Positions 31,876-59,352 of a DNA stretch of 64,000 nucleotides are shown one piece after another (the stretch's first letter is position 1; each line of letters begins with the position of its first letter). A program made the translations under genes and the position numbers. Origin of the DNA: Candidatus Omnitrophota bacterium (GTDB lineage: Bacteria > Omnitrophota > Gorgyraeia > JAFGIU01); NCBI GenBank assembly GCA_016929445.1, contig JAFGIU010000057.1, positions 3,867 through 67,866 of the forward strand, in the 5' to 3' direction. The notes below the pieces were generated by a model. It was not told the DNA's origin and searched no databases. It saw only the letters and a program-made list of their open reading frames with translations.

Positions 31876-32027
31876 GACGCCCCCCCGGTAGTCCGTGGCA
31901 GGATTCGGAACCCAAGTAGTAAGTATACCATTACTTGCAAATCCGATCTCCGGCCATTCAAGCAGCCTGGGTAAAGTTGGAGGCACTGTTTCGCTTCTCA
32001 GGCCCAATGGAGATAGTCACTGCATCA

Positions 32028-32414: not shown

Positions 32415-33923
32415 CTACAACGCCTTCCGGGCGGCGGAGTGCAGGGGTTCGAATTCGAGGACTTGCTCGAAATACCCGCGCGCGATTTCGGAATTACCCA
32501 GGCAGGTCTCCACTTGGCCCAGCAAATAAAGCGTGTGCGTGGAACCGGGCTCAAGGCTGAGGGCCTGCATAAAGGCCCGGCGAGCCTGCGCATACCGCCC
32601 CCGCACCAAAAGGGCCACACCCAACTCGTGATAAGCCTTGTGCGAAGCGGGCGAATAGGTTGTTTCCAGCTCCCACATCAAAACCGGCTGGGCCCAAACC
32701 TCATTCCGCGCAAAAGTCCCGACTCCATACCCGGTCAACAGCAATGCCACGCACAAAATCCCCGCGGCATGCCAGGCCCTCTGCCGCTCCTGGGCGGTTA
32801 TGAGGATCCACACCAAACCCATACCCACAGCCCAATGCCAGGTGAGCCCGGATAGATACACCAAATGCTCCACCAAAAGTCCGCCAAAGGGCACCAAGTT
32901 TGAAACCGGCAACATCAGAATCCAAAACCACCCCAGCACAAAGAAGCCCAATCCATTCTTGCGCAGGCGCCAGAATAAAAACCCGTTGAGCAACAGAAAG
33001 AGCAGGCCGCCGATCACCCGCGGATTCATCACCGAATGCCGGATCGCAATGGTATGCAGTACGTGCAAATCGGAAGGAAAGAGCAGAAGCCTCCAGTATT
33101 CCAGCCACACAGGCGCCATGGTCATCATGGTCGCGTACAAACTGCCGCCCCAATACTCGCGCTGCGCTACGCTGTGCAACAGGTGAGTCCTCAAAGCCAA
33201 GTAGAACCCGCCCACGGCAAAGAAAAACAACCACACAGGCAAACGCTTGCGCCATGCCGCTTCCGGTCTCAAGCATCTATCCAAAAGGAGGAGGACAAGA
33301 GGCAAAACAATCCCGCTCTCTTTGGAGAGCAAGGAAGCACAATAGGCCAAAAGGCTGAAGACCAGAACTCCGGGCCTCAAGCCTTTCCCCTCAGTGGCCG
33401 CCAGGTATAGCAACAGGGCCAGGAGAAAGAAAAAGGCATAGAGCAAATCTCCGCGGGAAGCAATCCAGGCCACGGATTCGGTCTGAACCGGGTGCAGCCA
33501 AAAAAGCATCGTGCTCAGGAGCGACGCGCTCCAGTTCAGATTGGAATCCCGGGAGGAGAATTTAATCAGGCGCAGGGTCAGGAGAAAAACCAGGAGTCCG
33601 TTGGCCCAATGAAGGAACACATTGTGCAAGTGATAGCCCAAAGGATTCAAGCCCCAGAGGGAATAATCCACGGCAAAGGAGAGCGTGCGCAAAGGCCGCC
33701 ACAGGGCGTGAAACCCGAAGGCCGCGCTGTCCGGGTCACTAAAGAATCTCGTCCACACCTTGGACAGAGGGCGAAGGGCGTCGTTGGTAACGATGAATGA
33801 AAAGTCGTCGTAGAAAAATTCCCCGCGCAGAGCGGGCAAATACAAAAGGAGGACGGCCGACATCCCCGCAATCAGCCAGAAGATACTCCGTTTCTTCCAA
33901 CGGCCATATTCAATCGGTCGCAT
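32415..33923 (-). CDS. TMTC-like GT-C-fold membrane glycosyltransferase: DUF1736-like multi-TM N-terminus with a YDD motif, plus C-terminal TPR repeats. Paralogue A.
   Basis: MRPIEYGRWKKRSIFWLIAGMSAVLLLYLPALRGEFFYDDF..., 10 or more TM helices, and C-terminal TPR (YHELGVALLVRGRYAQARRAFMQALSLEP...). ATG at 33923. Confidence 0.75.
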   Translation of the reverse strand: MRPIEYGRWKKRSIFWLIAGMSAVLLLYLPALRGEFFYDDFSFIVTNDALRPLSKVWTRFFSDPDSAAFGFHALWRPLRTLSFAVDYSLWGLNPLGYHLHNVFLHWANGLLVFLLTLRLIKFSSRDSNLNWSASLLSTMLFWLHPVQTESVAWIASRGDLLYAFFFLLALLLYLAATEGKGLRPGVLVFSLLAYCASLLSKESGIVLPLVLLLLDRCLRPEAAWRKRLPVWLFFFAVGGFYLALRTHLLHSVAQREYWGGSLYATMMTMAPVWLEYWRLLLFPSDLHVLHTIAIRHSVMNPRVIGGLLFLLLNGFLFWRLRKNGLGFFVLGWFWILMLPVSNLVPFGGLLVEHLVYLSGLTWHWAVGMGLVWILITAQERQRAWHAAGILCVALLLTGYGVGTFARNEVWAQPVLMWELETTYSPASHKAYHELGVALLVRGRYAQARRAFMQALSLEPGSTHTLYLLGQVETCLGNSEIARGYFEQVLEFEPLHSAARKAL

Positions 33924-35622
33924 GACCCAACCCTTCCAGTCTCTTCAGATTCTCCATGGCCTCACGCGCTGCCAATGACCCGGGCTGGACCTCAACCGCC
34001 TTTTCAAAAAACCCCTGCGCTGCTACCGGGTCCCGCACATAAGCAGCCTGAATAATCCCGAGTTTGTTATAGCTGTAGGCAAAAGCGGGATTGGCAGAGA
34101 CCGCCCGGTAGTACTGGGCTTGGGCCCCCTTCCAGTCCCCCGCCTCTTTGAGCAAATCCCCGATCGCCACAAAGAGCTCTGCCCCGCCCGGCGCAAATTC
34201 CAATCCTTGTTCATAGGCAGAACGCGCTTCGGCGCGGCGCCCCAAACCCTCGAGGGCTTTCCCCCGCCCCAACCAAGCACCCGCGTTTTCAGGCTGCACC
34301 CGCAGCAGCTGCGCATAAAGATCCAGCGCCCTGCCGAATTCCTTCTCCTGCAAATGAAGCGTGGCCCGCCCCAGCAAAGCCTGCGGATGCCAGGGAGAAA
34401 CGCGCAACAAGCTGTCCAAACGTTTTTTAGCCGCGTAACTGTCCCCTGCCTGATAGAGCGCCCAACCCAAGCCAAACTGCGACTTCGGACTTTGCGGATA
34501 GTGGTAATAGGCGGCAGACCACAGCGCCAAATCATCGGCCCACACCCCTGACTGCCGCACTGTGAGAAAAGAAAAACCCGCAAAAGCAATGAGTGCCACC
34601 CCGCCGGCAACCTTTCTCCAAATACGGTGCGCTTTCAAGGCAGCGACGAGCCACCCGCAAAATTCCGCCACGAGCATCACAGCCCCGAACATGGGCAGAT
34701 AGAAGAAGCGCTCCGCCCCGGGATTGGCCACAGGATAGAGCCCGAGCGCGGGCACCAAGCCCGCACCCAGCCAAAGCAGCCCGGCTTGGAGACGAAGATT
34801 CCGGGACCGCGCCCGCAACACCCCACCCAAACCCAGGCCGGCCAAACCCAATGCCGCCCACAAGCGCCAATCACTCAGACCGACCACTGCCTCAAACTCA
34901 TGAACCGGCGACAAGGCCACCGGCCAAAAGAAAGACCGCAGGTAGTGCACCCAAACCCAGAGTCCTGTCCCCAGCGCCGTGACAAGACTCCCCCCGGGAT
35001 AGGGCGGGAGTGTATCTGCATGATGGCTCATCCATCCAAAACGCAAGAGCACATAAGCGCTGATCACCAGCCAGTACCCTAACCAAGGTTTCTTCCAAAA
35101 CCGCAATACAGAGTCAAAGGTTCCGGCCTGTTGATCAGCCGCCAACACAAAGCCCACTAACAAAGGTAAGACCAATGCCGATTCCTTGGACAACAAGGCC
35201 AAGGCCCCCACTAAATAAGCCCATCCATGCCGGCCTGCCAATGCCAAACGCACGGCCGCCAGCACCCCCGCCACCATCAACAAATCTTTACGGTAGGTCA
35301 CGCACATCACTGCCTCCGAAGGAAGCGGATGCACACCAAACAGCAAAGTCCCCACAAAGGCCGGGATCTCGCCAAATCCAAGGCGCGTGAGCAAGGACCA
35401 CACCAGCACACAAGCCCCCAAATGCCACAGAAGATTCACCAAGTGAAGGGTCCAGGGATTGAATCCGTACAAATGGACGTCAATCCAATACGAGAGGGTG
35501 GTCAGGGGGCGGTAGGTGAATTCACCCGAGGCATTAAAGTATTCCTGCGTAAACCACAGGGAGGGATCCAAGGGCACTCTCAGGATCTTGGCGTTGAGCA
35601 GGACTGAATAGTCGTCATACAC
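33910..35622 (-). CDS. TMTC-like GT-C glycosyltransferase, paralogue B. Its first TM helix is encoded upstream in the same frame with no start codon. An ATG with a good SD sits at 35710 in the +1 frame, so this looks like a frameshift (see finding).
   Basis: The ORF begins MYDDYSVLL (GTG 35622). In-frame upstream codons encode ...QRSFYFLIIALLGIAITYLPSLSNGF, which parallels the N-termini of the other paralogues. The in-frame stop is at 35788-35790. Confidence 0.65.
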   Translation of the reverse strand: MYDDYSVLLNAKILRVPLDPSLWFTQEYFNASGEFTYRPLTTLSYWIDVHLYGFNPWTLHLVNLLWHLGACVLVWSLLTRLGFGEIPAFVGTLLFGVHPLPSEAVMCVTYRKDLLMVAGVLAAVRLALAGRHGWAYLVGALALLSKESALVLPLLVGFVLAADQQAGTFDSVLRFWKKPWLGYWLVISAYVLLRFGWMSHHADTLPPYPGGSLVTALGTGLWVWVHYLRSFFWPVALSPVHEFEAVVGLSDWRLWAALGLAGLGLGGVLRARSRNLRLQAGLLWLGAGLVPALGLYPVANPGAERFFYLPMFGAVMLVAEFCGWLVAALKAHRIWRKVAGGVALIAFAGFSFLTVRQSGVWADDLALWSAAYYHYPQSPKSQFGLGWALYQAGDSYAAKKRLDSLLRVSPWHPQALLGRATLHLQEKEFGRALDLYAQLLRVQPENAGAWLGRGKALEGLGRRAEARSAYEQGLEFAPGGAELFVAIGDLLKEAGDWKGAQAQYYRAVSANPAFAYSYNKLGIIQAAYVRDPVAAQGFFEKAVEVQPGSLAAREAMENLKRLEGLGHATD

Positions 35623-35764
35623 AAAGCCGTTGGAAAGCGAGGGCAGATAGGTAATCGCGATGCCTAATAAGGCGATGATGAGGAAGTAAAACGAACGTTG
35701 GTGGGGACATAGATCCTTCGTCGCTTTTCTCCTCAGGATGACAGCAGAGTTTCTTGGCCTGACA

Positions 35765-37030
35765 CTAGGATTTCTTGGCTTTGATGATCAGCTCGGACCC
35801 CGCAACATAACGCACTTCCTGGATCTCACAGCCACGGCTTAGCAGTGCAGCCTTAAGACTGGCTTGGGTGTAGTGAGTCACGTGCTCATCCGCATATCCT
35901 CCCCGGTGCACCCAGCCATAAACCTTTTCAATCCACACCCACGAGATCCTGTCGTAGTCGGGCGTCCCCACAATCAAGGACCCGCCCGGGGCTGCCACGC
36001 GCACAAGCTCGTCCAGAATTTCTTCGGCATCCAAACAGTGTTCAATCACCTGTGAGCTAATGACGGTTTCAAAGAGATTGTCCGCAAAAGGCAGTCTTGC
36101 ACCGCTTCCCCGAAGCAAACGGGTGTTGGTTCGCCTCATGAAACGCAATTTACCCATGCTGGGATCCAAGCCAACAGCCAAAGGCAAGTCGACAAGGATC
36201 TTGCTGGAACCGCAGCCCACATCCAGGATGCTGGTGCCGGGCTTTACCAACTCGCGAATATGGCGGTGCCTTTGGCGCTGCCACCAACGCTGCAACGGGA
36301 TCCGGCTGTAAAAGGCCCTGAAATCATAGTCTGCGCATTGGATGGAATTGCGCAACTGCCACAAGGAGCCCAAGGTCTTCAAATAGGACCGGGCAAAGGA
36401 GATGAGACGCGCGTGCGTCCGGCCTTCTTTGCGCGGCCGGTATTCGAAGGGAACTTCCTGTAAACGCCACCCCCCCGCATAGATTTTGAGAAGCAGCTCT
36501 TCCAACAGATCAAAATCCCGGCCCTGCGTTTGAATCTGCCGCAGGACTGAACTCCGGTACATGCGGAAGCCGCTGGACATGTCCTTGACCCCGATCGCCA
36601 AGACATGGCCATAAATCACATTTAGACAACGACTTAGAACCCACCTAAACCAGGGCATTTCCGCGCTGCCCCCGCTCACATAACGTGAGGCAATCACCAC
36701 ATCCGCGCGATCGCGCCAATCCCACATGCGCGCGATAAACTCCGGATCGTGCGAAAGGTCCGCGTCCAAACACAGAACATACTCCCCGCGCGAACGTTCA
36801 AACCCCTCCCTCAAAGCATTCCCATAGCCGGGGTTTGCCTGCACAAAAACTTTTGCGCCTGCGGCCTCGGCCTCCGCACAGGTTCCGTCTATGGAACCGC
36901 CATCGATGACCACCACTTCCCAGCTCAGCTCCATCCGGCTGAGCACTTGCGAAGTCCGTTCAATCAGCGGCCCCAGATTCCCGCCCTCGTTATGGGCTAA
37001 GATGAGAATGCTGAGATTCAACTCACTCAC
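35765..37030 (-). CDS. Bifunctional protein: GT2 polyprenyl-phosphate glycosyltransferase (Ppm1/DPM1-like) fused to a C-terminal class I SAM-dependent methyltransferase.
   Basis: LSILILAHNEGGNLGPLIERT...CLDADLSHDP is the GT2 DxD region. ILDVGCGSS...GGSLIVGTPDY is the methyltransferase part. I propose a GTG start at 37030 with the SD GGAGAGG, forming a GTGA overlap with the upstream stop. Confidence 0.75.
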   Translation of the reverse strand: MSELNLSILILAHNEGGNLGPLIERTSQVLSRMELSWEVVVIDGGSIDGTCAEAEAAGAKVFVQANPGYGNALREGFERSRGEYVLCLDADLSHDPEFIARMWDWRDRADVVIASRYVSGGSAEMPWFRWVLSRCLNVIYGHVLAIGVKDMSSGFRMYRSSVLRQIQTQGRDFDLLEELLLKIYAGGWRLQEVPFEYRPRKEGRTHARLISFARSYLKTLGSLWQLRNSIQCADYDFRAFYSRIPLQRWWQRQRHRHIRELVKPGTSILDVGCGSSKILVDLPLAVGLDPSMGKLRFMRRTNTRLLRGSGARLPFADNLFETVISSQVIEHCLDAEEILDELVRVAAPGGSLIVGTPDYDRISWVWIEKVYGWVHRGGYADEHVTHYTQASLKAALLSRGCEIQEVRYVAGSELIIKAKKS

Positions 37031-39447
37031 TTCTTGCGTCCTCTCCACAGGGAAACTCCCCCTGCAAGCAATATCCACACAAAAACCGACCCCAAGGCTC
37101 CTGCCGAGACCGTTGCCAAACGCTGAAAATCATAAGAAGCCACCCACTGGCAATGAGTGACGGATTCTCCTTGGGGAAGCATCCAAACAGGGAAGCCCGG
37201 CGCAAGCATGCCAATGACAGCACGCCTTTCATTCACGCGAATTTGCCAGCCTGGATCCGCCGTCATTTTCAGAAAAGCAGCGCCCCCCTCCGGCGCCTTG
37301 GAAAGCATGGAATGCCGGCCCCCGCCCCCCACATTCACCCACTGTACCTGAGGCACTGCAACATCGTCCAGCTCCTGAGGCAACGGGCCCAGTTCACGCC
37401 ACAACCCGGGCACAGAGGGCAAACCCGGTTCCAAGGCCGTGTAAGAACTCAAGCGAAGATTCTGATTCGAGTAAACAGAAATCCCCTTGTCCGCGCAACG
37501 CTGCAACAGCGTCCTCCAAAACGGGCTCTCTATCCCAAACTGTCCGGGCTCCAAAAGCACGAGCGCGCGCACCTTGCCTCCTTCTATCCAGGTTTCAAAG
37601 TCCCGAGGCCGGGGGCTTAGCCGCACCAAAGGCCAAACCTGCCGGTAGCCGCCTTCGCGCATAGCCCACATAAACCAGCTGTGGCTGAGTTCGTACCAAT
37701 CCCGCAGATTGGATAAAACCAGAACAGGGGAAGCCCAGAGAGGATCAGCCAGACTTGCGGGGACGCTTCTCTGAGTGAGAGCCAGACGATCCAAGAGAAA
37801 CGTCCCTGGCGCACTGAGTCCGCCGAGATGAGTGACTCCATAAAGATCCAAAATCCACGGATGCTCCTCTGCCGCGTTATCCGGCCACCAAAACTTCGGC
37901 GTCCCTCCCCAATTCGACGCGCTGCTCGAGCCACGGGCCTTGGGATGGGACAAGCCCGAGAGCGTGGCCAGGTCCTCCAGCCCCGGACTCCGCGCCTCAT
38001 ACAACACGCGCGCGCCCGGATTCTCTGCCCGGATTTGGAGAAGCTCCCCGGTCACGGCCTCCATAAACTGCTCTGCGTCGCGCTGTCCCAATTCGCGCGC
38101 CGTGCGCAGGCGCTCATACAATGCCGGCGCTGAAAGAACCAGGATCAAGGTCAAACACAAGACAATGCCTTCGCGGGTGCGCGCCACCATGGGATTAACT
38201 GTCTCCCTGTAAAAAAATTCCCGCACCCAGCGCGTCAGCGCCGTCACCACGGAGGCGGCCAAAACTGCGGTGCCTATCTGCAGGAGAAACACCGCGCGCC
38301 ACTGCATAAGTTCCCCCCACATAGGAACACGGTTCATCCCCGGAATCTCATCGGCGCCCAATATCAGCGCCAAAGAAACACACAGAAGAGACAGAACCAT
38401 CACCTCACCTGTCTCCCACTCCCCGGGTCTGCACAAGTAATAGACCAAACCAAGGACCGCCATCCCCGTCAGGACAGGCCAGCGCCCTTCACTAAGAGTC
38501 GGCTGCAAAAATGCCGGCCCCAATTGGATCCACGTCTCCGGCAAAGCCACGCCTTCGAAAAGCGCTCCCAAAAACCAGGAATGCAGGAGCGCCGGAACCG
38601 ACGGGCTCTGCCACAAGCCTGTAAAACGATAGAGTTCAGGCTGAGGGATAACTAAATGGAATTGGCTATAGGCAATCGCGGGCCACACCCACAAGCACCC
38701 TATAGCCAGAGCAAACACGAAAACTAAAAATAATTTGAGGACCGGCCATGCGCTTCGCCGGCCCTTGCGGGAGAGCAAAATGAGAACTTCAAGGATCGCC
38801 ACCCAGCAGAGGAAGAAGGCGGCAATGGGATGGGCCAATAGCAAGAGTCCCGTGCCCAAAGCAGCCCAGGCCCAGGAGCCTTTGTGCCAAAGGCAGCGGT
38901 GCAGGGCGCTAAAGGCCAGACAAAAGAGCACATAGCCCAGCAACTGCGCTTGCAATCCAATTAATGTGTAGGCTTCCAGGCTGTGGCCCCAAGGATTGAA
39001 GAAGAGCAAACAGAAAAGACTCGCGCCCCCGGCAGTCAAGGCAGGCAAATCCAGCGACCGGAGACACCGGTATAATGCCAGGGGAAAAGCGCTCCACAAG
39101 ACCACCGTCGAAAGCCAAACCCATACCACAGCCCCCAGCAGGGGAAACACCGCGCGCAATCCCCCCGCAATCAAAGCATGCAAGGGCGGATAAGCGCTCC
39201 ACAAAGGCACACCCAATCCCGCAGTCCAAAAACAAAAGGGGTGCTTGTGGGCCAGGAATTGGCGGGCAAAGGCCTCCGCATGAGCGGTATGAAAGTAGAA
39301 GTCCTCCGAAAGCACAGCGTGAGAATGGCCCAGGGCTAAGGCCCCCAGGACTGCGGCCAAAATGCAGGCCAAAAAAGCCAAAGCCCGCCCTGCCGTGTGA
39401 TCCCAAGCATCGGCTTCGGGAAAGGGCGCTCCCATCACCGGCAACAT
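37027..39447 (-). CDS. Large polytopic membrane protein with a C-terminal periplasmic beta-rich domain. YfhO/GT-C-like; family uncertain.
   Basis: About 800 aa with 12 or more predicted TM helices. The C-terminus (...GWQIRVNERRAVIGMLAPGFPVWMLPQGESVTHCQWVASYDF...) resembles a YfhO-type tail. The start is ambiguous (ATG at 39447, 39465 or 39435). ATG 39447 lies 1 nt after the upstream stop. Confidence 0.55.
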   Translation of the reverse strand: MLPVMGAPFPEADAWDHTAGRALAFLACILAAVLGALALGHSHAVLSEDFYFHTAHAEAFARQFLAHKHPFCFWTAGLGVPLWSAYPPLHALIAGGLRAVFPLLGAVVWVWLSTVVLWSAFPLALYRCLRSLDLPALTAGGASLFCLLFFNPWGHSLEAYTLIGLQAQLLGYVLFCLAFSALHRCLWHKGSWAWAALGTGLLLLAHPIAAFFLCWVAILEVLILLSRKGRRSAWPVLKLFLVFVFALAIGCLWVWPAIAYSQFHLVIPQPELYRFTGLWQSPSVPALLHSWFLGALFEGVALPETWIQLGPAFLQPTLSEGRWPVLTGMAVLGLVYYLCRPGEWETGEVMVLSLLCVSLALILGADEIPGMNRVPMWGELMQWRAVFLLQIGTAVLAASVVTALTRWVREFFYRETVNPMVARTREGIVLCLTLILVLSAPALYERLRTARELGQRDAEQFMEAVTGELLQIRAENPGARVLYEARSPGLEDLATLSGLSHPKARGSSSASNWGGTPKFWWPDNAAEEHPWILDLYGVTHLGGLSAPGTFLLDRLALTQRSVPASLADPLWASPVLVLSNLRDWYELSHSWFMWAMREGGYRQVWPLVRLSPRPRDFETWIEGGKVRALVLLEPGQFGIESPFWRTLLQRCADKGISVYSNQNLRLSSYTALEPGLPSVPGLWRELGPLPQELDDVAVPQVQWVNVGGGGRHSMLSKAPEGGAAFLKMTADPGWQIRVNERRAVIGMLAPGFPVWMLPQGESVTHCQWVASYDFQRLATVSAGALGSVFVWILLAGGVSLWRGRKK

Positions 39448-39448
39448 C

Positions 39449-39835
39449 TCAGCGCGCGGGAACATAGGCCCTCGTTTTGAATTGCCCGGCCCGGCTCCAG
39501 CGCAGAGCTTTTTCCTCCTGCCAGGCACGGACCTGCCAGAAGTACCCGGTCTCGGGCTCCAAGGCGGTCACATAGATTTCCGGAGCTTGTATCTCTTTAT
39601 TCTCCAATGTCGCGGGGACTTCTCCGGGCAAACCCTGAAAAATTTGGACTTCGTATTGAATCTCTTCTCCGGGCACGGGATTCCAAACAAGGTGAACCGC
39701 ATCCGGATTGAGCAGCGCCCCGTCTGCCGGACGAATCAGCACAGGCTTGAGCCAAAGCATTTGCTGCAGGTAGCAGCCCAGGAGCCAGCTCAGAAACAAC
39801 AATACCACCAGCCTGGATAAATGAGGCACTCTCAT
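39449..39835 (-). CDS. Small membrane-anchored or secreted protein with a fibronectin type III-like domain.
   Basis: ATG 39835 (MRVPHLSRLVVLLFLSWLLG) forms an ATGA overlap with the upstream stop. FN3-like W...W pattern (LVWNPVPGEEIQYEVQIF...YFWQVRAW). Confidence 0.5.
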   Translation of the reverse strand: MRVPHLSRLVVLLFLSWLLGCYLQQMLWLKPVLIRPADGALLNPDAVHLVWNPVPGEEIQYEVQIFQGLPGEVPATLENKEIQAPEIYVTALEPETGYFWQVRAWQEEKALRWSRAGQFKTRAYVPAR

Positions 39836-49612: not shown

Positions 49613-49617
49613 TCTTA

Positions 49618-49757
49618 GGGACAGGTCTCGCCATCCCTATACCGTATAATAGGTTACATGAGATCCGTCCCCATCCCCTTCACCGGTGATGAACGGCGAT
49701 AGGGGGACGGACCTCGCGTAACCCGCTATGCTGCAATGGATTCGAGAGACCTGTCCC
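49618..49757. repeat. Family-B nested inverted repeats. The outer pair is GGGACAGGTCTCG...CGAGAGACCTGTCCC and the inner pair is GAGATCCGTCCCC...GGGGGACGGACCTC. The element overlaps the 3' end of the TMTC-like gene 49680..51341.
   Basis: Read directly: 49618-49630 / 49743-49757 and 49660-49672 / 49702-49716. Confidence 0.45.
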
Positions 49758-51341: not shown

Positions 51342-51342
51342 C

Positions 51343-52902
51343 TCAAACCCCTAGCAAAGACAGGTGCCGGAGCAGTTGGCCGGCCTGCGGATAGTTGAAC
51401 TGCTGCGCCAGAAGCGCATGAACCATGGACTCCTCCAAACGCTGGGGGTTCTGATGCATGAGCGTGAGCGATAAACCGTAATGAGCCAACCCACTGTCCC
51501 CGCGCAAGGAAATGGCTTTACGGAATTGATCCTCGGCCAGGAGAAAATCCTGGCGATGCGCGGCCGCCAGGCCCAAACCAATATGAGCCTGAAATGAGGC
51601 CGGCGCGGCTTCCACCTCATGACTCCAAAGAGTCCATTCATTCTGCCAGTCCTCTCCCCGCTCCAGTGTGAACAGGCCATAGGACAAAAGCATCGTAAAC
51701 GCCAAAAGGCTGGGCACCAGGCGCTCCTTCTTGTGGGCGCGGTCCTCATTCCAGGACCGGTTCCACAGCCGCACAAAAACCGCTCCCAAAATCCAGCCAA
51801 AACCCAGCACCGCCAAATAGAGAAAATGCTCGGCCATGATCCCCCGGAAAGGAACCAGATTGGAAACAGGCAGAAGAGTCCAAAAGGCCAAGGCCAAAGC
51901 CATAATGATCCAACGCCGGCCCAGGCCTACCCACAAGAGCGCGCCCGCCAAGGTCCCCATCAAAATCAGCGGCTGCCAAAAAGCGCCACTCGAAGCAGTG
52001 CTCACAGCCGAAACCTGCCGGATCACATAGAGCGGATGCGGAAAAAGCAGGAGTTCAAAATACCCATAGACAATACTGGGCACGGTCCACAAGGTGGGCC
52101 AAAATCCTCCGGCCCAATACCCCCTCTGCGCCACCGAACCGACCACAAAAAGACGCACCAGAAAGAAGACGCCTACCAAAATAAGATGCGGTTTAATAGT
52201 CCGAATGAGTCTGCCCAAACGCCGGATACGGATACGGTCTCCAAGACAAAAGGCATAGGTCAGGAGCAAGAAAGGCAGTACCACGGCAGTCTCCTTACTC
52301 AAAAGCGCAAGGAGCGTGGCCGCAGTACTGAAGAAATGGGCCCAGCGTTTGCCTTCAACCAGATAGAGCCTATAGGCCAAGAGCGCCCACAGGGCAAAGA
52401 ATGCATAGAGCAAATCCCCGCGCGAGGAAATCCAATACACGCTCTCGACCTGCACCGGATGCAAAAGAAAGACCGCAGCCCCAAACCAGGCCGCCTCCAT
52501 AGCGCGTTTCTGATCCATCCAGGCAAAATCACCGAACACCCGGATCCCCAACCACCAGGCCAACAGGACATTGAGCAAATGCAAGACCACCTGTGTGCAA
52601 TGGTAACCCCAGGGATGCGCCCCAAAGGCCCGCCACTCCAGGGCATAAGAAAGGGTGCGCAAGGGCCGGTAAATTTGATGATCCTCGGAAGAAACTGCCC
52701 GGGAACTCAGAAAATAGGAAGGCCATTGAGACAAGTCGTGTTTGGCCGTGTTTTCCACGATAAAGGAAACATCGTCGTACACAAACTCCCCTTGAAGGCT
52801 CGGCAAATAAGCCAAAGCCCCCAAAAGCACAAGGGCGAGTCCCCCGATCAGGTACCGGGTGAATCTGCCTCTGAAAATGGTTTCAGCATTTGATAAAAAC
52901 AT
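51343..52902 (-). CDS. TMTC-like GT-C glycosyltransferase with TPR, paralogue D.
   Basis: ...YLIGGLALVLLGALAYLPSLQGEFVYDDVSF.... Probable start ATG 52902 (MFLSNAETIFRG), 2 nt after the upstream stop. The track's 52980 start overlaps by 76 nt. Confidence 0.7.
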   Translation of the reverse strand: MFLSNAETIFRGRFTRYLIGGLALVLLGALAYLPSLQGEFVYDDVSFIVENTAKHDLSQWPSYFLSSRAVSSEDHQIYRPLRTLSYALEWRAFGAHPWGYHCTQVVLHLLNVLLAWWLGIRVFGDFAWMDQKRAMEAAWFGAAVFLLHPVQVESVYWISSRGDLLYAFFALWALLAYRLYLVEGKRWAHFFSTAATLLALLSKETAVVLPFLLLTYAFCLGDRIRIRRLGRLIRTIKPHLILVGVFFLVRLFVVGSVAQRGYWAGGFWPTLWTVPSIVYGYFELLLFPHPLYVIRQVSAVSTASSGAFWQPLILMGTLAGALLWVGLGRRWIIMALALAFWTLLPVSNLVPFRGIMAEHFLYLAVLGFGWILGAVFVRLWNRSWNEDRAHKKERLVPSLLAFTMLLSYGLFTLERGEDWQNEWTLWSHEVEAAPASFQAHIGLGLAAAHRQDFLLAEDQFRKAISLRGDSGLAHYGLSLTLMHQNPQRLEESMVHALLAQQFNYPQAGQLLRHLSLLGV

Positions 52903-52904
52903 GG

Positions 52905-53921
52905 TTATTGAAATAGAGTTTTGGAGAGCTGAGAGAGAATGGTCTGATAGGCCTCGCAAGGCGTCCAGCACTGCGGGCACTTCCCCTCTTCGATCTCCTT
53001 CCTTAGATTCTTGGTTTCATTCTCTTGCCAAAAACGGGCCAGATCGTAATCGCAACCGCGCAGACTGCCCGCCTTCCGGTCATAAATCGAACAAGGATAA
53101 ATATCCCCGAAGGGATCGATAAAAACCGAGGAGGCTAATGCCTGGCATACCATAGGCGACTGACCCGAGCGCGCAAACTCCGGGGCCAGAGCCAAGTAAC
53201 GGTCTTCCAGCCAGGCCACAGGATTTCTTGGCTTCCCCCTGAGCTTTCGGATCTCCCCCAGGATCTCCTGCAGTCCCTCAAGCGAGGCCCGGGGCATCCC
53301 CCCGTTTTGATAGTAATGCCCGGACTCGTGCGCCACGTTAACATGAAAATCCTTGTGCGTCACATAGGGCAGCTTAGCCTGCACATCCTTCACCGCCTGA
53401 GGGAACTGGCCCTCATTAAAACCGGAAAGCGTGAGCCCAAAATAGACTCCGAAATTTTCGCGGTTAATTTGCCGCAAAAGATTGAAGGTATCCGTGCATC
53501 GCTCCCATGCCCCCTCCACTTGCCGAATCTCATCGTGACCTTCCCGCGTGCCGTCCAGGCTCAGCGTGACCAAGAGCCGCTTGGGTTTGAGATCGAGGAT
53601 CTCCCGCACCTTCTTCTCAATATACTGGGTCTGCTGACCTGTGCTCGGGAAATCAATCAAGTACAAGTCTTTGCAGTTCCCGATCATGAGCTTCACGATC
53701 TCAATAAGATCCGGGCGCATAAAAATCTCACCGCCGCTCAAATTAATCCAGGAAAACCGGTTGGACTTCTGAAAAAATTCGCGGTATTCGTCCAGGCTCA
53801 TCTGAGCGCTGGAATCGCGTTGCCAAATATTGCACATCTTGCAGCGGCAATTGCAGGTGTACGTCAAGATGAGTGTGAGCTTATAGGGAAAAGGCAGGCG
53901 TTTGAAGTTGGTGGCGAACAT
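52905..53921 (-). CDS. Radical SAM enzyme with a C-terminal SPASM-type Cys-rich domain.
   Basis: CNCRCKMC is a CxxxCxxC cluster near the N-terminus; the C-terminus carries CPQCWTPCEAY. I propose the start at ATG 53921 (MFATNFKRLPFPYKLTLILTYTCNCRC). The track start at 54017 overlaps the upstream gene by 70 nt. Confidence 0.7.
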   Translation of the reverse strand: MFATNFKRLPFPYKLTLILTYTCNCRCKMCNIWQRDSSAQMSLDEYREFFQKSNRFSWINLSGGEIFMRPDLIEIVKLMIGNCKDLYLIDFPSTGQQTQYIEKKVREILDLKPKRLLVTLSLDGTREGHDEIRQVEGAWERCTDTFNLLRQINRENFGVYFGLTLSGFNEGQFPQAVKDVQAKLPYVTHKDFHVNVAHESGHYYQNGGMPRASLEGLQEILGEIRKLRGKPRNPVAWLEDRYLALAPEFARSGQSPMVCQALASSVFIDPFGDIYPCSIYDRKAGSLRGCDYDLARFWQENETKNLRKEIEEGKCPQCWTPCEAYQTILSQLSKTLFQ

Positions 53922-53947
53922 GCGCGCGGCCAGTGCGGAGAGCGCGT

Positions 53948-56125
53948 TCACCCGTTCAGCTCCGCGGCCTCGGGTTTTTGCCCATAGACCCCGATGCGAT
54001 ACTGCCCGCCCAGCCACCGCGCTGTCTGATTCACCGCGGCAATCCCTGCGCGCGTGACTTTATTCAAGGAACCGGGTTTATCCCAGCGCTTGCTGGGGTC
54101 GGCGTCCTCCCCCACAACTTGAACCACTTGCAGGCCCTCATTCTGAAAAAGCTGTTTGAGCGATTGGAGTCCGAAGAAATACGTATGGCTATTATCGTAT
54201 AAATCGTAGACGTAACGGTCAAAGAAGTGAAAGCTGCCCAAGTAGATCATGCGCGCCACGCGCATCAACAGGCTTTCCGCATTCTGGGCCACCACTAAAA
54301 GCAGACCGCCTGGCCGCAGCAAGCGGTAGGCTGTGCGCAGATCCGTGAATGGATCCGGCAAGTGGTCCAAGGTATCCCAGAACACCACCACATCAAAGGA
54401 GGCATCGGCATGAGGCACATCTTGAAGCGTGCCGCAGTGGACATCAACGCCGAACTGCTCCATCGCGTACTCCGCTGCATGCCGGGAGATCTCAACCCCG
54501 CAAGGCTCGGCCCAACCTGCCCCCTTGGCCATGTCCAAAAAAATACCCATGCCCGAGCCCACTTCCAGGATGCGCCCCTTTTGACGGTATTTGAGCATTT
54601 CCCAAAGAGCCCGCCGGTAGAGCGCTATCTCCTTACGGCTCAAACGCCTGCGATAATCCTGTCCATAGCGATGCAACTGACCTTGTTCAAAATACGTGCG
54701 ATCATTATAAAAACTCAGCAAGGCCCGTTCCGAACCCTCCATCAAACGTCTCTGCATCAAACCGCAATCCGCGCAGCGATAGAGCTCTCCGAAAAAATAG
54801 GGATAGCGCCGCTGCTGCAAGGGGTAATACATCCGCACCTGCGCAGACCCGCAAAGATGGCACTTTCCGTGCTCCGGCACTGCCATGGATAACTCCTCTT
54901 GCCAATTCGTGTCCAAGCCCTGCCCAGGCTCTTCCCGGGGCTCATCAGAAAAATAGCGCGCCTTGAGCGTGTCAAAAACCTCTTGCACGCTAATGCTCCA
55001 AATACACACCGGAAACTGGCAACTGCTGGTTTTTTGATTGAGATTCGTAATGCAAGGGCTGCAGGGCAGGCGATGGTAAAAGGCCGTGTGCTGCTCCCCG
55101 CCCCAGGGGCCGTAAAGGACCGGGGTGTTGGGCCCATAAAAACCTGCCACAGGCGTGGACATGGCGCACCCGAAATGCGCCAGGGCCGTATCATTGGAAA
55201 GAACCAAGTAAGCCCGGTCTGTGAGAGCGGCCAGTTCAGTGAGATTGATTTTCCCGGCCACGCTCGCGGAAGAAGCCTCCATCTTGTTACGGATGCGCTC
55301 AATAAGAGCGTTTTCCGCGCGTGTGCCCGTAAACACCACCCGCGCCCCGCACTCCGCGGCCAACCGGTCTGCGAGTTGGGCAAAAGAGTTCTCCGGCCAG
55401 CGCCGCTCCGCAAAATTCTCCCCGGATCCCGCATGGATCAAGACAATGCGGCCCTCTTGCCCGATGCCCTGATCCGCCAATAAGCGCTCCACGCGCCGGG
55501 CCTCTTCTGCTTTATAAGGAATAGCCACCGGCTCCAGATTCTCACAAGGCACTCCGGCGGCTTGCGCAATTGCGGCAAAGGCCGGCACCATGTGCCGGTT
55601 TTCCGGATAGTCAACGGGATGGGTATACACAAAGCCCCGCATCTGCCCGGGCGTCTCAAATCCGTAACGGTAGGGCGCGGCAGTCAAAGCGCTAAAAACA
55701 CTGGCGGTCTTGGCAAACTGTTCAAAATCCAGGACCATATCGACCCGCTCCACGGACAGATGCCAGAAGAGTCTCAACAGGCTAACAGCAAAATGAAAGG
55801 CGCTGGTCGTATCCAGATAAAGCACTCTGTCCACATCCGGAACGGATTCCATCAAGCCCGCGTTTTGGCGCAAGGTAAGAAACAGAATCTCGGACTGGTC
55901 AAAATGGACGCGAAGCGCCCGCACAGTGGGCAGAAGCATCACAAGGTTCCCGATACCCGGAAACTTGATGAGGAGAATCTTGGATGGAGATTGAGAATCC
56001 GGCGGGATAATCCCCAGAAGCCGGCGTAAAAACAAACGCAAGGGCAACACAAGCTGAAGCGCCACACAGAGCACATAGCAGGCGTACTTATCCAGAATCC
56101 GAATACCTTTAGAGTTTAGGGTCAA
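53948..56125 (-). CDS. Bifunctional protein: GT9 (heptosyltransferase-family) glycosyltransferase fused through a Cys4 zinc ribbon to a class I SAM-dependent methyltransferase.
   Basis: SKILLIKFPGIGNLVMLLP...TGTRAENALIERI is the GT9 part. CHLCGS...CADCG is the zinc ribbon. RILEVGSGMGIF...LLRPGGLLLV is the methyltransferase part. TTG start 56125 overlaps the upstream stop as TTGA. Confidence 0.7.
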   Translation of the reverse strand: MTLNSKGIRILDKYACYVLCVALQLVLPLRLFLRRLLGIIPPDSQSPSKILLIKFPGIGNLVMLLPTVRALRVHFDQSEILFLTLRQNAGLMESVPDVDRVLYLDTTSAFHFAVSLLRLFWHLSVERVDMVLDFEQFAKTASVFSALTAAPYRYGFETPGQMRGFVYTHPVDYPENRHMVPAFAAIAQAAGVPCENLEPVAIPYKAEEARRVERLLADQGIGQEGRIVLIHAGSGENFAERRWPENSFAQLADRLAAECGARVVFTGTRAENALIERIRNKMEASSASVAGKINLTELAALTDRAYLVLSNDTALAHFGCAMSTPVAGFYGPNTPVLYGPWGGEQHTAFYHRLPCSPCITNLNQKTSSCQFPVCIWSISVQEVFDTLKARYFSDEPREEPGQGLDTNWQEELSMAVPEHGKCHLCGSAQVRMYYPLQQRRYPYFFGELYRCADCGLMQRRLMEGSERALLSFYNDRTYFEQGQLHRYGQDYRRRLSRKEIALYRRALWEMLKYRQKGRILEVGSGMGIFLDMAKGAGWAEPCGVEISRHAAEYAMEQFGVDVHCGTLQDVPHADASFDVVVFWDTLDHLPDPFTDLRTAYRLLRPGGLLLVVAQNAESLLMRVARMIYLGSFHFFDRYVYDLYDNSHTYFFGLQSLKQLFQNEGLQVVQVVGEDADPSKRWDKPGSLNKVTRAGIAAVNQTARWLGGQYRIGVYGQKPEAAELNG

Positions 56126-57213
56126 CTAAACCTCGGGCTCGCTTCCGGGCTGCGGTATTCCCCGCAGTCCTTACATACGCTAAAGAACTTCTTGCGCCGG
56201 TGACTGCGGCGCAATGCGCGCATCTTGCCGCCGTTCCACAAATCCCTAACCGGAGTCTCCCGCGCATTGCCGATCACCAGATCACCCTCCGAATCGGCAC
56301 AGCACACGGTCACCCGCCCGTCCCACAAGACAATGGCACTCCCGCGCCAAAGCTCCCGGCATTTGTGCTCCCGCGGGTGCTCCTCCAATTTGGGAATGAG
56401 CTGCACGCGATCCGCGATCGGCCCCCATTCCTGCCGGTAGCCCGCAACGTCCCGCTCAGTTTCCTCCCAAACCACCATGGAAGTATCGATCTTGAGAGGG
56501 CTATGGGTCGCATCACGCATCTTTTTGAATTCCAGAATATTGCGTTTGAGTTGCTCGTACTCAAAGCCGCGAATCTTTGTGTGTGTGTCCCCCAAGCCGT
56601 CCACTGAAAACGTAATGCGATCCAGGCCGGACTCCAGGATACGCTTAATGGCCTGCGGGCTCATGAAAGTCCCGTTTGTGGTCATCATGGTGCGGATGCC
56701 CCGGTCATGCGCGTAGCGAATCATCTCCAGAATCCGCCGGTGCAACATGGGCTCACCCCACTGAAATACCAGGATGAATTCCAGCTCCGGGTGCTCATCC
56801 ACAATTTTTTTGTAAAGATCGAAATCCAACAGGCCCTTTTTGCGCTCCATCCCGTGATTGACGGGACACATGGCACAAGCCAAATTGCAGGCATTCGTGG
56901 CTTCCAGATTGATGGTCACCAGCTTGAATCCCCGCTCCCGGCCCAAAACAAAATAAAGTTCATTCATGAAACCATGGAAGGCGGACTTGAAATCGGGAAA
57001 CTTGACGGCCAGGATACCTGCCTGATCCGGACGCCGCAAATACCAACGGGCCACAAACCCCATAAAGCGTTCCATAATCCAGGATTCCCACACCCGGACC
57101 TTGGCCGTGGCCGGCGGGATAAGCACATCCTCCGGCCGGATTTGCTCCGTCTCCGGGCTGGACTTAGAATGAGCTATGGCCTCTTCGACAATCGGATCTT
57201 TTTCTTCCGGCAT
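56122..57213 (-). CDS. Radical SAM/SPASM-domain enzyme (second copy).
   Basis: CNLACAMC is the CxxxCxxC motif, with C-terminal Cys clusters (CCADSEGD...CKDCGEY). The start is uncertain: ATG 57213 overlaps the divergent plus-strand gene by 38 nt. An alternative is ATG 57078 (MERFMGF). Confidence 0.7.
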   Translation of the reverse strand: MPEEKDPIVEEAIAHSKSSPETEQIRPEDVLIPPATAKVRVWESWIMERFMGFVARWYLRRPDQAGILAVKFPDFKSAFHGFMNELYFVLGRERGFKLVTINLEATNACNLACAMCPVNHGMERKKGLLDFDLYKKIVDEHPELEFILVFQWGEPMLHRRILEMIRYAHDRGIRTMMTTNGTFMSPQAIKRILESGLDRITFSVDGLGDTHTKIRGFEYEQLKRNILEFKKMRDATHSPLKIDTSMVVWEETERDVAGYRQEWGPIADRVQLIPKLEEHPREHKCRELWRGSAIVLWDGRVTVCCADSEGDLVIGNARETPVRDLWNGGKMRALRRSHRRKKFFSVCKDCGEYRSPEASPRFS

Positions 57214-59053
57214 TCTCTTTACACTCTGGATTTGGCTCGTATTTTACGAGCTGGGTCGTTTTGTCCTCAACCGGTTCAGGTTCTCTCCTGCTCCGGAAAT
57301 CCAAACACTGAGCTTTGCAGGCCTGGGCTTTCTGCTCTTTTCCCTGCTCACCCTCGGTCTCGGCCTCCTGGGAGGCTTTCATATCCCCGTCTTTCGATCT
57401 CTCTACGCGGCGGGCTGGACCGGACTCTGCCTGCGATGGGCTCAGCGCTCCCTCCCCTATTTGTTAAGGAAGAAGCCGCTTTGCCTAAAGCTGCCTCCCG
57501 CTGCCTGGGGCTGGACCCTGATTTTCTTGCTCTTTGCCTTACAAGCTTACTTGTCCTTTGGCCCGCCCATTGGCAGGGATGCTCTCAACTATCATCTCAC
57601 TTTGCCGCAGTTCTACCTGCAAACCGGGGGTATTGCCCTCATGCCCCAGAATCTGTACTCCAGCTTCCCCCAATCTCTGGAAATGGTCTATACCTGGGCC
57701 CTGGCCCTTGCCCCGGACTACTCGCCCAAACTTCTGCACACGCTCATGGGCCTTGCCTGCGCGCTCACACTTTTTGCCGCTTTGAGAAAACGCTGCCCCG
57801 ACGGCATCGCCCTTCTGGCAACGAGTCTATTCTATTCCACTCCTTTGCTCGGCCAAATAGGACCTTGGGCTTATGTGGATCTGGCCTTGGCCTGGGCCGA
57901 GCTCCTCGCCCTGCTCTATGTGTTGGACTGGATGGAAAACGCCAATCCGCAGCGTCTTTGCATAGCCGGCGCTTTCACGGGATTGGCCCTAGGCGTCAAA
58001 TACTTGGGCATGCGGCTCCTGCTGATGCTGCCGCTTCTCGTCCTGGCCTACACATTCAATGAACGAAAATCCTTTAAAGAGACTTTTAAGCTCCTCGGCC
58101 TGTTTCTGTTGCCCGCCCTGGTCTTGGGAGCCCCCTGGTATCTCAAAAACCTGGCCTTTACCGGGAATCCCATCATGCCCTTCTTGTATTCCGTGTTCGG
58201 CGGGCCGGACTGGGATGCAGAACGCGCCGCCCTCTTTGCTCAATTTCTCAGAACCTATGGCTTTGGAACCCGAGTCCCGGACCTGCTGCTATTGCCCTGG
58301 CGGCTGAGCGCGTACGGTACCGAAGGGATTGCTCACTTTGACGGCTGGATCGGCCCCGGATACTTGCTCATGACTCCCGCCCTGTTAGGCATCGGTCGAG
58401 TGGCGCGCCCAATACGCTTTGTCGCGCTCTATGCAGGCCTCTCTTTTGCGCTCTGGACCGGGATGAGCCAACAAGCCCGCCTGCTGTTGCCGGGCCTTGC
58501 AATCTTTGCGCTGGGCTGGGGCCCTTGTTTCAGAGAATTCCGCGCAGCTTGGCCGCGAGCGGCACAGTGGCTGGGGATCGTACTCGCACTCACCTGCGTT
58601 TGGAACATTGGCCCCACTCTGGCTCGCGCCATTAACGACGGGCCCGCCCCTATTTGGAAGAGGGAAGTTTCACGCGAGCACTGGCTCGCGTCCAGGCTGC
58701 CCAGCTACACAGCTGTCAATCACATGAATCGAAACCTGCCTCACGACGCCCGCGTGCTCTTTGTGCACTTGGGGAATATCGCCTACTATGCGAATCGTTC
58801 GTATATTGAAGATCCGCTTTTCCAGGAGCACACGCTTCTGGAAAACATCCGCCACAGCGCTTCAGATTCCGGTCTGGCAATGGCGCTCTCCCAAGATGGG
58901 GTGACTCACCTACTTATCAACGAGCAGGCCTGGGCCGAGTTCGGAGCACCGGAACTCAGCAAGGCTGAAGCAGAGCGCTTCCAAAGGTTTCGGGACAACC
59001 ACCTCAAACCCCTTGCAGGCGACGGGACTTATTACTTGTATGAGCTAAGTTAA
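57176..59053 (+). CDS. Polytopic membrane protein, probably a GT-C-fold glycosyltransferase (ArnT/PMT-like; family uncertain). The only plus-strand gene in the window.
   Basis: A 625-aa ORF with 12 or more hydrophobic helices. It has a periplasmic loop with RDALNYH and a C-terminal soluble domain. ATG at 57176. It is convergent with the pilin genes. Confidence 0.55.
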   Translation: MASSTIGSFSSGILFTLWIWLVFYELGRFVLNRFRFSPAPEIQTLSFAGLGFLLFSLLTLGLGLLGGFHIPVFRSLYAAGWTGLCLRWAQRSLPYLLRKKPLCLKLPPAAWGWTLIFLLFALQAYLSFGPPIGRDALNYHLTLPQFYLQTGGIALMPQNLYSSFPQSLEMVYTWALALAPDYSPKLLHTLMGLACALTLFAALRKRCPDGIALLATSLFYSTPLLGQIGPWAYVDLALAWAELLALLYVLDWMENANPQRLCIAGAFTGLALGVKYLGMRLLLMLPLLVLAYTFNERKSFKETFKLLGLFLLPALVLGAPWYLKNLAFTGNPIMPFLYSVFGGPDWDAERAALFAQFLRTYGFGTRVPDLLLLPWRLSAYGTEGIAHFDGWIGPGYLLMTPALLGIGRVARPIRFVALYAGLSFALWTGMSQQARLLLPGLAIFALGWGPCFREFRAAWPRAAQWLGIVLALTCVWNIGPTLARAINDGPAPIWKREVSREHWLASRLPSYTAVNHMNRNLPHDARVLFVHLGNIAYYANRSYIEDPLFQEHTLLENIRHSASDSGLAMALSQDGVTHLLINEQAWAEFGAPELSKAEAERFQRFRDNHLKPLAGDGTYYLYELS

Positions 59054-59328: not shown

Positions 59329-59352
59329 TTTCGACTCCCCCCTCCAAACCGG

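Follow-up and report, generated by a model that had tools for sequence, protein, structure and literature searches.

We analyzed a 64-kb stretch of DNA from a Candidatus Omnitrophota bacterium (contig JAFGIU010000057.1; this whole stretch is called the window), in which a 27-kb gene island at positions 32415-59053 encodes ten membrane proteins of the GT-C glycosyltransferase fold. We read it as an envelope glycosylation island inside a type IV pilus locus that would work by a lipid-phosphate-sugar/GT-C route, with pilus proteins as acceptors of at least part of the island, and we put the probability of this reading at about 0.5. The general chemistry, i.e., periplasmic GT-C transfer from a lipid-phosphate sugar, is well supported by fold and family membership and is much more likely than any single acceptor. 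Because the membrane proteins have GT-C folds and the glycosyltransferase family 2 (GT2) domain encoded among them matches only polyprenyl-phosphate glycosyltransferases, periplasmic glycosylation with a lipid-phosphate sugar is the natural reading, as a preliminary description of this DNA had proposed.

The window is approximately a single type IV pilus super-locus, with nearly all genes on the (-) strand. In the direction of transcription, it opens with an MshEN+PilZ protein, a PilS-like kinase, a PilR-like sigma54 activator and two tandem pilin genes, followed by the island; past the island come a GspH-type minor pilin, a gene of the nucleoside diphosphate (NDP)-sugar dehydratase/epimerase family, more prepilin-type genes and three DUF7305 paralogues, then a 1236-amino-acid (aa) MFS/spermidine-synthase-like membrane protein, PilM/N, PilO, a secretin and a tetratricopeptide repeat (TPR) protein, and at the far end a PilC-type platform protein, a second sigma54 activator and an Ig-repeat frame of at least 2141 aa. 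Thus pilS-pilR-pilA1-pilA2 flank the island on one side, and minor pilins, the three DUF7305 genes, pilMNO and the secretin on the other. Ten of its 16 genes encode GT-C-fold membrane proteins: four TMTC-like paralogues with TPR tails (T1-T4), two PMT_2+TPR proteins (P1 and P2), one PMT_2+DUF8201 protein (P3) and three YfhO-like proteins (Y1, Y2 and U833), which fall by identity and hhalign into the four groups T1-T4, P1/P2, P3 and Y1/Y2/U833. The remaining six encode a GT2-methyltransferase, a GT9-methyltransferase, two radical SAM/SPASM proteins, a TPR protein and a small FN3-like lipoprotein. All the gene classes listed in the preliminary description were recovered in place with Pfam and NCBIfam; its single continuous (-) string is unbroken over 32415-57213 and ends there, as the last gene, P3 (57176-59053), lies on the (+) strand, divergent from the string and converging on the pilin genes. 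Within the island, neighbouring genes abut, the lipoprotein gene being the sole extra open reading frame (ORF) in a gap, and base composition gives no sign of foreign origin. Next-best relatives of most island proteins examined are ~28-35% identical, with the GT2-methyltransferase as the exception (~55%).

The ten proteins were shown to be of the GT-C type, two by structure comparison and the others by profile, and the GT-C membrane core superposes on solved GT-C enzymes, with sequence identity to solved members of 7-13%. PMT_2 matches exceeded the gathering cut-off (26.1 bits) in P1 (39832-42471, - strand; 61.8 bits, E 1e-16, with PMT at E 2e-6 and TPR_19), P2 (47186-49612, - strand; 42.3 bits, E 1e-10, with TPR_2; 34% identical to P1) and P3 (31.1 bits, E 3e-7), in agreement with the earlier count of three PMT_2 proteins, two of them with TPR repeats. 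The true start of P1 is probably near 42276, and the NCBI entry identical to P3 is named 'glycosyltransferase family 39' and carries PF26626. Two YfhO-like proteins had been described, Y1 (42276-44483, - strand; C-terminal match E 3e-11, 42.9 bits; 26% identical to Y2 over 677 aa) and Y2 (44392-46575, - strand; C-terminal match E 9e-9, 34.7 bits; also a weak PMT_2 match of 25.1 bits, just under the cut-off); both stand above the YfhO cut-off of 28.5 bits, with matches covering just the last 60-70 residues of the 835-position model. A third was found in U833 (37027-39465, - strand), a divergent GT-C of the YfhO type whose periplasmic domain is alpha/beta plus beta-sandwich and whose C-terminus is an anchor helix. 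U833 itself has no YfhO match, but 10 of 25 U833 homologues carry one; hhalign aligned the U833 family with Y2 at a probability of 98.3% (and the T family with the P3 family at 91%), and AftA was among the top structural matches of U833. An acidic motif occupies the first extracytoplasmic loop in T1-T4 (YDD), P1 (SDED), P2 (GDE) and U833 (SED); P3 has an invariant D135 within RDALNYH, and in Y1 and Y2 the acidic first-loop motif was not located with confidence.

Directly upstream of the U833 gene lies the gene of the FN3/Ig-like lipoprotein (39449-39835, - strand; 128 aa, LLGC lipobox), whose fn3 (E 5e-4) and Ig_Rha78A_N (E 8e-5) matches are both below Pfam cut-offs. As domains of the Ig_Rha78A_N, Pur_ac_phosph_N and fn3 types are fused to 5 of 25 U833 homologues, the lipoprotein and U833 look like a fission/fusion pair, which suggests that they work together.

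The TMTC-like proteins T1 (32415-33923), T2 (33910-35787), T3 (49680-51341) and T4 (51343-52980), all on the (-) strand, are paralogues with 27-37% identity. Pfam matched only their TPR tails, of which that of T2 is long and that of T4 weak; T4, without a Pfam match at E<=0.01, is 32-37% identical to T3 and T1 and has the TMTC motifs. By its published definition (PMC7801869), the TMTC family combines seven motifs with an 11-helix domain, a luminal TPR tail and the DUF1736 loop, which connects helices 7 and 8. Five of the seven motifs are kept in T1-T4, namely DD (as F-V/F-Y-D-D), YRP, RxD, KE and E..Y, with D33/D34, R72/P73, R144/D146, K188/E189 and E345/Y349 invariant in all four; M2, (SHKS)YRP, is reduced to YRP, and the Arg of M7 (ERxxY) is His in T1 and T4. 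Moreover, the T-family consensus LFAVHPVHVEAVAWIS resembles the TMTC3 segment LLFAVHPIHT (PMC7801869), and the model of T3 has ~11 long helices followed by TPR repeats from near residue 396 (a topology read from the model alone). On the other hand, Pfam DUF1736 (PF08409) matched none of T1-T4 at E<=5 and was on one of 120 homologues among the matches listed, and the DW motif (M5) is absent from T1, T3 and T4 and not conserved in the family alignment. With DUF1736 undetected, DW not conserved and the Arg of M7 replaced by His in two of the four, we call these proteins TMTC-like rather than strict TMTC: judged by their motifs, they are TMTC-like homologues without the defining DUF1736 loop and are not family members in the Pfam sense. 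The 'DUF1736-type' quartet of the preliminary description keeps its four paralogues and five motifs and loses DUF1736, and the profile searches proposed there placed membrane proteins in PMT_2 and YfhO but neither T1-T4 in DUF1736 nor U833 itself in YfhO. Some JGI homologue entries are named 'protein O-mannosyl-transferase', most database names being only 'tetratricopeptide repeat protein', and we found no report in the literature of a tested function for bacterial TMTC-like relatives. In T2, an N-terminal membrane helix is in frame, but no ATG, GTG or TTG occurs between the upstream stop and GFVYDD, so that a canonical start codon is missing before the helix; the gene may use a rare start codon or have begun to decay, or the sequence may contain an error.

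The putative donor synthase (35765-37078, - strand) joins a GT2 domain of the polyprenyl-phosphate glycosyltransferase type (Glycos_transf_2, E 5e-25) to a class I methyltransferase (Methyltransf_11, E 2e-14). Best NCBIfam matches of the GT2 domain were AglJ, Dol-P-hexose transferase, ArnC, PpgS and PgfS, all of them polyprenyl-phosphate glycosyltransferases and all scoring far below equivalog cut-offs (88 bits against 325 for AglJ). Family resemblance is in line with the polyprenyl-phosphate half of the earlier 'Ppm1/DPM1-like' assignment, while mannose as the sugar is not established. The same architecture occurs in thousands of proteins with ~50-56% identity, including members from Margulisiibacteriota, Binatia and one Woesearchaeota archaeon, a level of conservation across distant phyla that is unusually high for a surface-glycan enzyme. 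In four related loci (L001, L002, L005 and L006), the GT2-methyltransferase gene is followed by that of a methyltransferase resembling the corresponding half of the GT9 fusion; a PMT_2 GT-C gene comes next in L001 and L002, its equivalent in L005 being a 528-aa gene with no Pfam match on record, and in L003 and L004 the GT2-methyltransferase gene is divergent from that of a PMT_2+NPCBM protein. Such conserved pairing of synthase and GT-C is a signature of the lipid-phosphate-sugar route (Gtr-type systems, PMC11127046). The two methyltransferase domains of the island, here and in the GT9 fusion, make methylated sugars plausible, as had been suggested.

The case for pilus proteins as acceptors begins with the two major pilins beside the island, PilA1 (59713-60039, - strand; N_methyl motif GFTLIEL), the candidate acceptor, and its paralogue PilA2 (59353-59685, - strand; mature part 77% identical to PilA1). 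Mature pilins have 102 aa, no Cys and 19-23% Ser+Thr (10.4% in other window proteins), and 37-43% of their last 30 residues are Ser, Thr or Tyr; PilA1 has the higher values (23% and 43%). The P3 gene converges on pilA2 and stops 300 bp short of it. We surveyed the P3 family with one genome per species (52 loci), mapping the window proteins onto the loci and searching for prepilin motifs. The loci belong to Omnitrophota, Elusimicrobia, Planctomycetota, Chloroflexota, Acidobacteriota, Binatia and Deltaproteobacteria, and in ~27 of the 52 a short GT2 gene directly follows the P3 homologue. At least four other phyla have P3 relatives beside pilB/C/S/R or pilA: a homologue follows pilB-pilC-pilS-pilR in L007 (where a 6TM_PilS domain is on record) and pilC-pilS-pilR in Planctomycetota L013 and L023, the latter with a 376-aa GT2-like ORF between pilR and the P3 homologue (DDGSSDG and DSD motifs, by eye), and in Elusimicrobia L012 one lies ahead of a pilin gene whose product shares 42% identity with PilA2. 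The Syntrophobacteraceae locus L048 consists, in order, of pilR, pilA, a YfhO-like gene (822 aa), PMT (541 aa), GT2, methyltransferase, cupin, P3-like and GT2, with minor pilins ~7 kb on; this locus is a miniature of the window layout, with GT2 and methyltransferase as separate genes. In L009 (4365-17861), a secretin is followed by ~7 GT-C genes, T-like ones included. The link to pili noted earlier is strengthened by the position of the island inside the type IV pilus locus, the P3 homologues beside pil genes in other phyla and the L048 layout. The association of PMT_2+DUF8201 genes with pil genes across phyla is new, and we found no literature on it; searches for DUF8201, LIC_10190 and bacterial TPR-bearing O-oligosaccharyltransferases yielded only papers on TMTC and TfpW.

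In the proposed mechanism, the GT2-methyltransferase would place a hexose-type sugar from a nucleotide sugar onto polyprenyl phosphate at the cytoplasmic face of the membrane, and the sugar would be tailored by the two methyltransferase domains, a nearby short-chain dehydrogenase/reductase (SDR) and possibly the radical SAM enzymes. The lipid-linked sugar would then be flipped across the membrane, although no flippase gene was found here. In the periplasm, the ten proteins with the GT-C fold would transfer it to acceptors, presumably by way of the acidic catalytic motif in the first periplasmic loop (DD in T1-T4, DE in P1/P2), and the TPR tails of six of them probably serve as acceptor-binding modules. 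With one donor synthase for ten transferases, the paralogues probably differ by acceptor site or linkage and not by donor. The likeliest acceptors would be the two neighbouring major pilins, rich in Ser, Thr and Tyr, perhaps along with further pilus proteins or adhesins encoded in the locus, with P3 as the best candidate for the initiating pilin glycosyltransferase, and the GT9-methyltransferase, together with T4/T3, may act on a glycolipid instead.

Several points weigh against pilus proteins as acceptors. Among those internal to the window: i) the pilins are no more than candidate acceptors, by composition and position; ii) a sigma54 -24/-12 promoter consensus (60140-60155, - strand; TGGCACATAGCTTGCT, the sole zero-mismatch match to the consensus within the window) lies ~100 nt upstream of pilA1, and an intrinsic-terminator-like hairpin (59300-59332, - strand; a 15-bp stem, then a T run) follows pilA2, which points to a separate transcription unit for the pilins, and with this operon having its own promoter and terminator and P3 on the opposite strand, co-transcription does not tie them; iii) no membrane helix is predicted in the GT2-methyltransferase fusion; iv) the island has no GtrA-type flippase ORF, and the unassigned stretches of the window have no small multi-helix ORF; and v) the scheme leaves the roles of the radical SAM proteins and GT9 unexplained. 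Among the related loci, the fetched stretches of L007, L013 and L023 contain no pilin gene by strict or relaxed prepilin patterns, and the T family overall is not pilus-linked: among the 38 metagenome loci (8 kb or longer) surveyed for this family, one is a clear type II secretion system locus (L121), and a few have PilS/R-like regulators. The remaining points concern the surroundings of the closest homologues and lead to the foremost alternative.

By that alternative, the island builds or modifies a glycan or glycolipid with the same chemistry, the acceptor being lipopolysaccharide (LPS) core, O-antigen or another envelope polysaccharide, as in Gtr/ArnT-type systems and the mycobacterial Emb/Aft/Pim lines, and the island would lie among pilus genes by chance or because surface remodelling is co-regulated; we consider this possible but not probable. 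Most characterised three-component systems act on glycans (PMC11127046). The closest homologues of the GT2-methyltransferase (54-55% identity) belong to O-antigen-like clusters that also encode Wzy_C, a Wzx-type flippase, GT1/GT2 proteins, DegT and sugar dehydratases; the gene sets of L001, L002, L005 and L006 described above lie in such a cluster. A TMTC-like GT-C+TPR protein 28% identical to T1 is encoded inside a lipid A/core LPS locus (L088, 1623-17901), with LpxK, a lipid A acyltransferase, GT4-GT9, GT4 and two GT9 upstream and, past one unassigned ORF, a pfkB kinase, KdsB, KdsA, KdsD and LptC/A downstream. LPS heptosyltransferases make up family GT9, and in L088 and L115 T genes come directly after GT9 genes; in the window, the GT9-methyltransferase gene is likewise found a short way upstream of T4 and T3, so this sub-module may serve a glycolipid. 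Against a glycan acceptor stand the P3-type genes beside pil genes in at least five loci of several phyla, L048 among them with its repeat of the pilA/island/minor-pilin layout, and the lack of Wzx, Wzy, WaaL or Lpt genes in the window. Many P3 homologues, moreover, belong to Chloroflexota, which to our knowledge are generally without LPS, and six of the ten GT-C proteins have TPR tails, which go with protein substrates in TMTC, OGT and TfpW. Neighbourhood comparison, which the preliminary description had called for, thus points both ways, to pil genes for P3 and to O-antigen-like and LPS loci for the GT2-methyltransferase and T kin, and the protein acceptors proposed there are candidates only.

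A second alternative, which we consider unlikely, is general envelope protein O-glycosylation that is not pilin-specific and modifies Ser/Thr-rich or Ig-like segments of many periplasmic or surface proteins, including the giant Ig-repeat protein, the DUF7305 proteins and lipoproteins, in the manner of Pgf, GtrB/PgtC2 or TMTC1-4 on cadherins. YfhO-type enzymes do glycosylate many Ser/Thr-rich tails, T-family tandem arrays are often away from pilus genes, and an Ig-repeat protein of 2141 aa or more is encoded in the window; in L115, an HYR/Ig-like surface protein is encoded directly upstream of the GT9 gene, which is followed by four T genes. However, these acceptors are candidates only, the Ig-repeat protein lies 26 kb off (a loose adjacency), and the pil-specific synteny of P3 favours at least one dedicated pilus-related enzyme. 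The pilus, glycan and broad-protein readings of the acceptor are not fully exclusive.

That some GT-C paralogues are inactive, either scaffolds with TPR repeats or copies that have decayed within a rapidly evolving locus of surface variation, is very improbable: T2 has no canonical start codon, the ERxxY Arg is His in T1 and T4 and the TPR signal of T4 is residual, but all four T proteins keep DD, YRP, RxD, KE and E..Y in frames open over their full length, and with only 27-37% identity they are old duplicates that have been maintained.

A more specific form of the protein reading takes T1-T4 and the PMT_2+TPR proteins as a bacterial counterpart of TMTC1-4 that shares a methylated polyprenyl-phosphate hexose donor, each enzyme having its own site or fold class on pilins, minor pilins and Ig-repeat adhesins. 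We hold this to be rather doubtful. If it were true, the locus would place a multi-site, variable sugar coat on the attachment organelle of a possibly host-dependent nanobacterium, and a large bacterial TMTC-like family would consist of protein O-glycosyltransferases.

The preliminary description knew of no characterised bacterial counterpart, a statement that TfpW, Pgf, GtrB/PgtC2 and the Gtr-type systems contradict. In group IV pilin loci of Pseudomonas aeruginosa, pilin O-arabinosylation is carried out by TfpW, a GT-C that is encoded next to pilA and has a predicted TPR tail (10.1101/2020.04.19.049825). The island shares with it a GT-C gene beside the major pilin gene (here P3) and an acidic motif in periplasmic loop 1, and there are parallels to its DDx motif, its predicted C-terminal TPR and its polyprenyl-phosphate monosaccharide donor from clustered genes. 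In contrast to TfpW and Emb, the proline-rich motif YX6PFX7P (periplasmic loop 4) is absent from all ten GT-C proteins by strict and relaxed searches, which places the island outside the TfpW family. In addition, its donor route runs through GT2 and methyltransferases rather than PRPP/DprE1/DprE2, it has ten GT-C proteins rather than one, and the tail of the pilin-adjacent P3 is DUF8201 and not TPR.

In the streptococcal Pgf and GtrB/PgtC2 systems, a GT-A enzyme makes undecaprenyl-phosphate sugar, which YfhO-family GT-C enzymes use outside the cytoplasm to modify Ser/Thr-rich, often C-terminal, regions of proteins (10.1101/2024.05.05.592596). Like Pgf (PgfS/PgfM1/PgfE/PgfM2), the island combines a synthase with YfhO-type GT-C proteins and has an epimerase/dehydratase-type gene nearby, and there are weak NCBIfam matches to PgfS and PgfM1/M2, far below family cut-offs. 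The differences are an Omnitrophota host with secretin and pilMNO rather than a Gram-positive coccus and the additional PMT_2 and TMTC-like enzymes and methyltransferase fusions. The likeness of T1-T4 to TMTC1-4 consists in a ~11-helix GT-C domain followed by TPR, in M1, part of M2, M3, M4 (KExxT) and M7 (E-R/H-x-x-Y), in the LFAxHPxxxE segment of the T family set against LLFAVHPIHT of TMTC3 (PMC7801869), and in several paralogues with one presumed donor. Unlike TMTC1-4, however, they lack the DUF1736 loop with DW, the loop between helices 7 and 8 being short, their donor would be a bacterial polyprenyl-phosphate sugar, and an LPS locus (L088) contains at least one bacterial relative.

A GT2 of the polyprenyl-phosphate type combined with periplasmic GT-C proteins is also the arrangement of the Gtr-type three-component systems (GtrA/GtrB/GtrC) and of ArnC/ArnT (PMC11127046), and GT2-GT-C gene pairs are conserved in relatives of the island. 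Unlike in the Gtr-type systems, a GtrA-like flippase gene is missing, the GT2 is fused to a methyltransferase and lacks a predicted membrane helix, there are ten GT-C proteins, and the setting is a pilus locus rather than an O-antigen or prophage locus. Actinobacterial protein O-mannosylation by Pmt/Ppm1 likewise pairs a PMT-type GT-C with a polyprenyl-phosphate sugar synthase, but the island has neither a MIR domain nor a Ppm1-type Lnt fusion. Mycobacterial Emb, Aft and PimE provide a case of many GT-C paralogues working on one or two lipid-linked donors.

New features of the window are the ten GT-C proteins of four kinds in one pilus-embedded island and the GT2 and GT9 domains each fused to a methyltransferase, beside two radical SAM/SPASM genes. 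Arrays of 4-7 tandem GT-C genes (PMT_2, PMT_2+TPR, Dpy19+TPR or T-like) were also seen in L009, L099, L102, L124, L085 and L115. In the T-family survey, 18 of the 38 loci have at least two tandem T genes (up to 5-6), and 3 of 38 have an adjacent YfhO-like gene. Because multi-copy arrays occur elsewhere, the density noted in the preliminary description is unusual but not unique; it is high, with ~7 GT-C genes in a row in L009 and 4-6 tandem TMTC-like genes in several metagenome loci for comparison.

Bacterial relatives of the cadherin O-mannosyltransferases (TMTC) of humans are very numerous in metagenomes, and the locus offers a testable setting for them, in which ten candidate transferases and a single donor synthase are found together with two small pilins rich in Ser and Thr, and with a GT-C subfamily (PMT_2+DUF8201) that recurs beside pilus genes in several phyla. 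If the pilins are the acceptors, glycosylation of pilins by GT-C enzymes would reach far beyond the case of TfpW and would point to surface sugar coats as a part of Omnitrophota attachment to other cells; if LPS is the acceptor, the TMTC-like family would be a new class of periplasmic LPS-modifying enzymes. Either outcome would give a function to large families now without one.

As for the other genes of the island, the GT9-methyltransferase (53948-56125, - strand) consists of a heptosyltransferase-family GT-B domain (Glyco_transf_9, E 6e-32), a Cys-rich linker and a class I methyltransferase (Methyltransf_23, E 7e-24); against the NCBIfam models of heptosyltransferase I/II/III it scores 90-100 bits, below the cut-offs of 135-185, and only Pfam Glyco_transf_9 passes. 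Radical SAM/SPASM protein 1 (56122-57213, - strand; Radical_SAM E 2e-19, SPASM E 9e-14) is encoded by the first gene of the (-) string and protein 2 by 52905-54017 (- strand; Radical_SAM E 1e-9, SPASM E 7e-5), and no NCBIfam model reached its cut-off for either. A role in making ribosomally synthesized and post-translationally modified peptides was set aside, no precursor-peptide-like ORF lying beside them. The secreted TPR protein (46449-47189, - strand) has TPR_1/TPR_2 matches and a signal-peptide-like N-terminus after an internal Met; it and the lipoprotein are the TPR and FN3-like proteins named in the preliminary description.

Pilus genes resume directly after the island with the GspH-type minor pilin (31372-32007, - strand; GspH and N_methyl matches), and further prepilin-type (N_methyl) minor pilin genes occupy 28628-30271 (- strand). 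Among the minor pilin genes lies the extended-SDR NDP-sugar 4,6-dehydratase/epimerase (30382-31341, - strand; GDP_Man_Dehyd, 288 bits). It had been reported as a GDP-mannose-4,6-dehydratase-family gene just upstream of the island; the family gene is there, but it lies downstream in transcription and scores 187 bits against the NCBIfam gmd cut-off of 415, with dTDP-glucose dehydratase, LegB and GalE scoring similarly. Just downstream of the minor pilins are the three tandem DUF7305 paralogues (22877-28305, - strand; 551, 612 and 547 aa), which may be pilus-tip or pilus-associated proteins. The 1236-aa membrane protein between them and pilM/N (19047-22757, - strand) matches NF037959 'fused MFS/spermidine synthase' (67.7 bits, cut-off 40) and Spermine_synth.

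On the other side of the island, the PilR-like sigma54-dependent response regulator (60284-61693, - strand; Response_reg, Sigma54_activat, HTH_8) and the PilS-like sensor histidine kinase (61690-63162, - strand; HAMP, PAS, HisKA, HATPase_c) are preceded upstream by the MshEN+PilZ protein (63169-63852, - strand), whose two modules bind cyclic di-GMP. At the left end, the giant open frame of at least 2141 aa (1-6423, - strand), which leaves the window, has FecR, a PilN-like segment and Ig-like repeats (Glucodextran_B x4, Big_6 x3 and Big_13); of the Ig/cadherin-like repeats previously attributed to it, the Ig-like ones were found and no cadherin domain was. Giant Omnitrophota proteins are reported in a 2026 preprint to be flanked, as a rule, by secretion or pilus genes. 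Between the giant gene and the second sigma54 activator (7439-9106) lies a small HTH_17 (excisionase/MerR-like) ORF (6908-7144, - strand).

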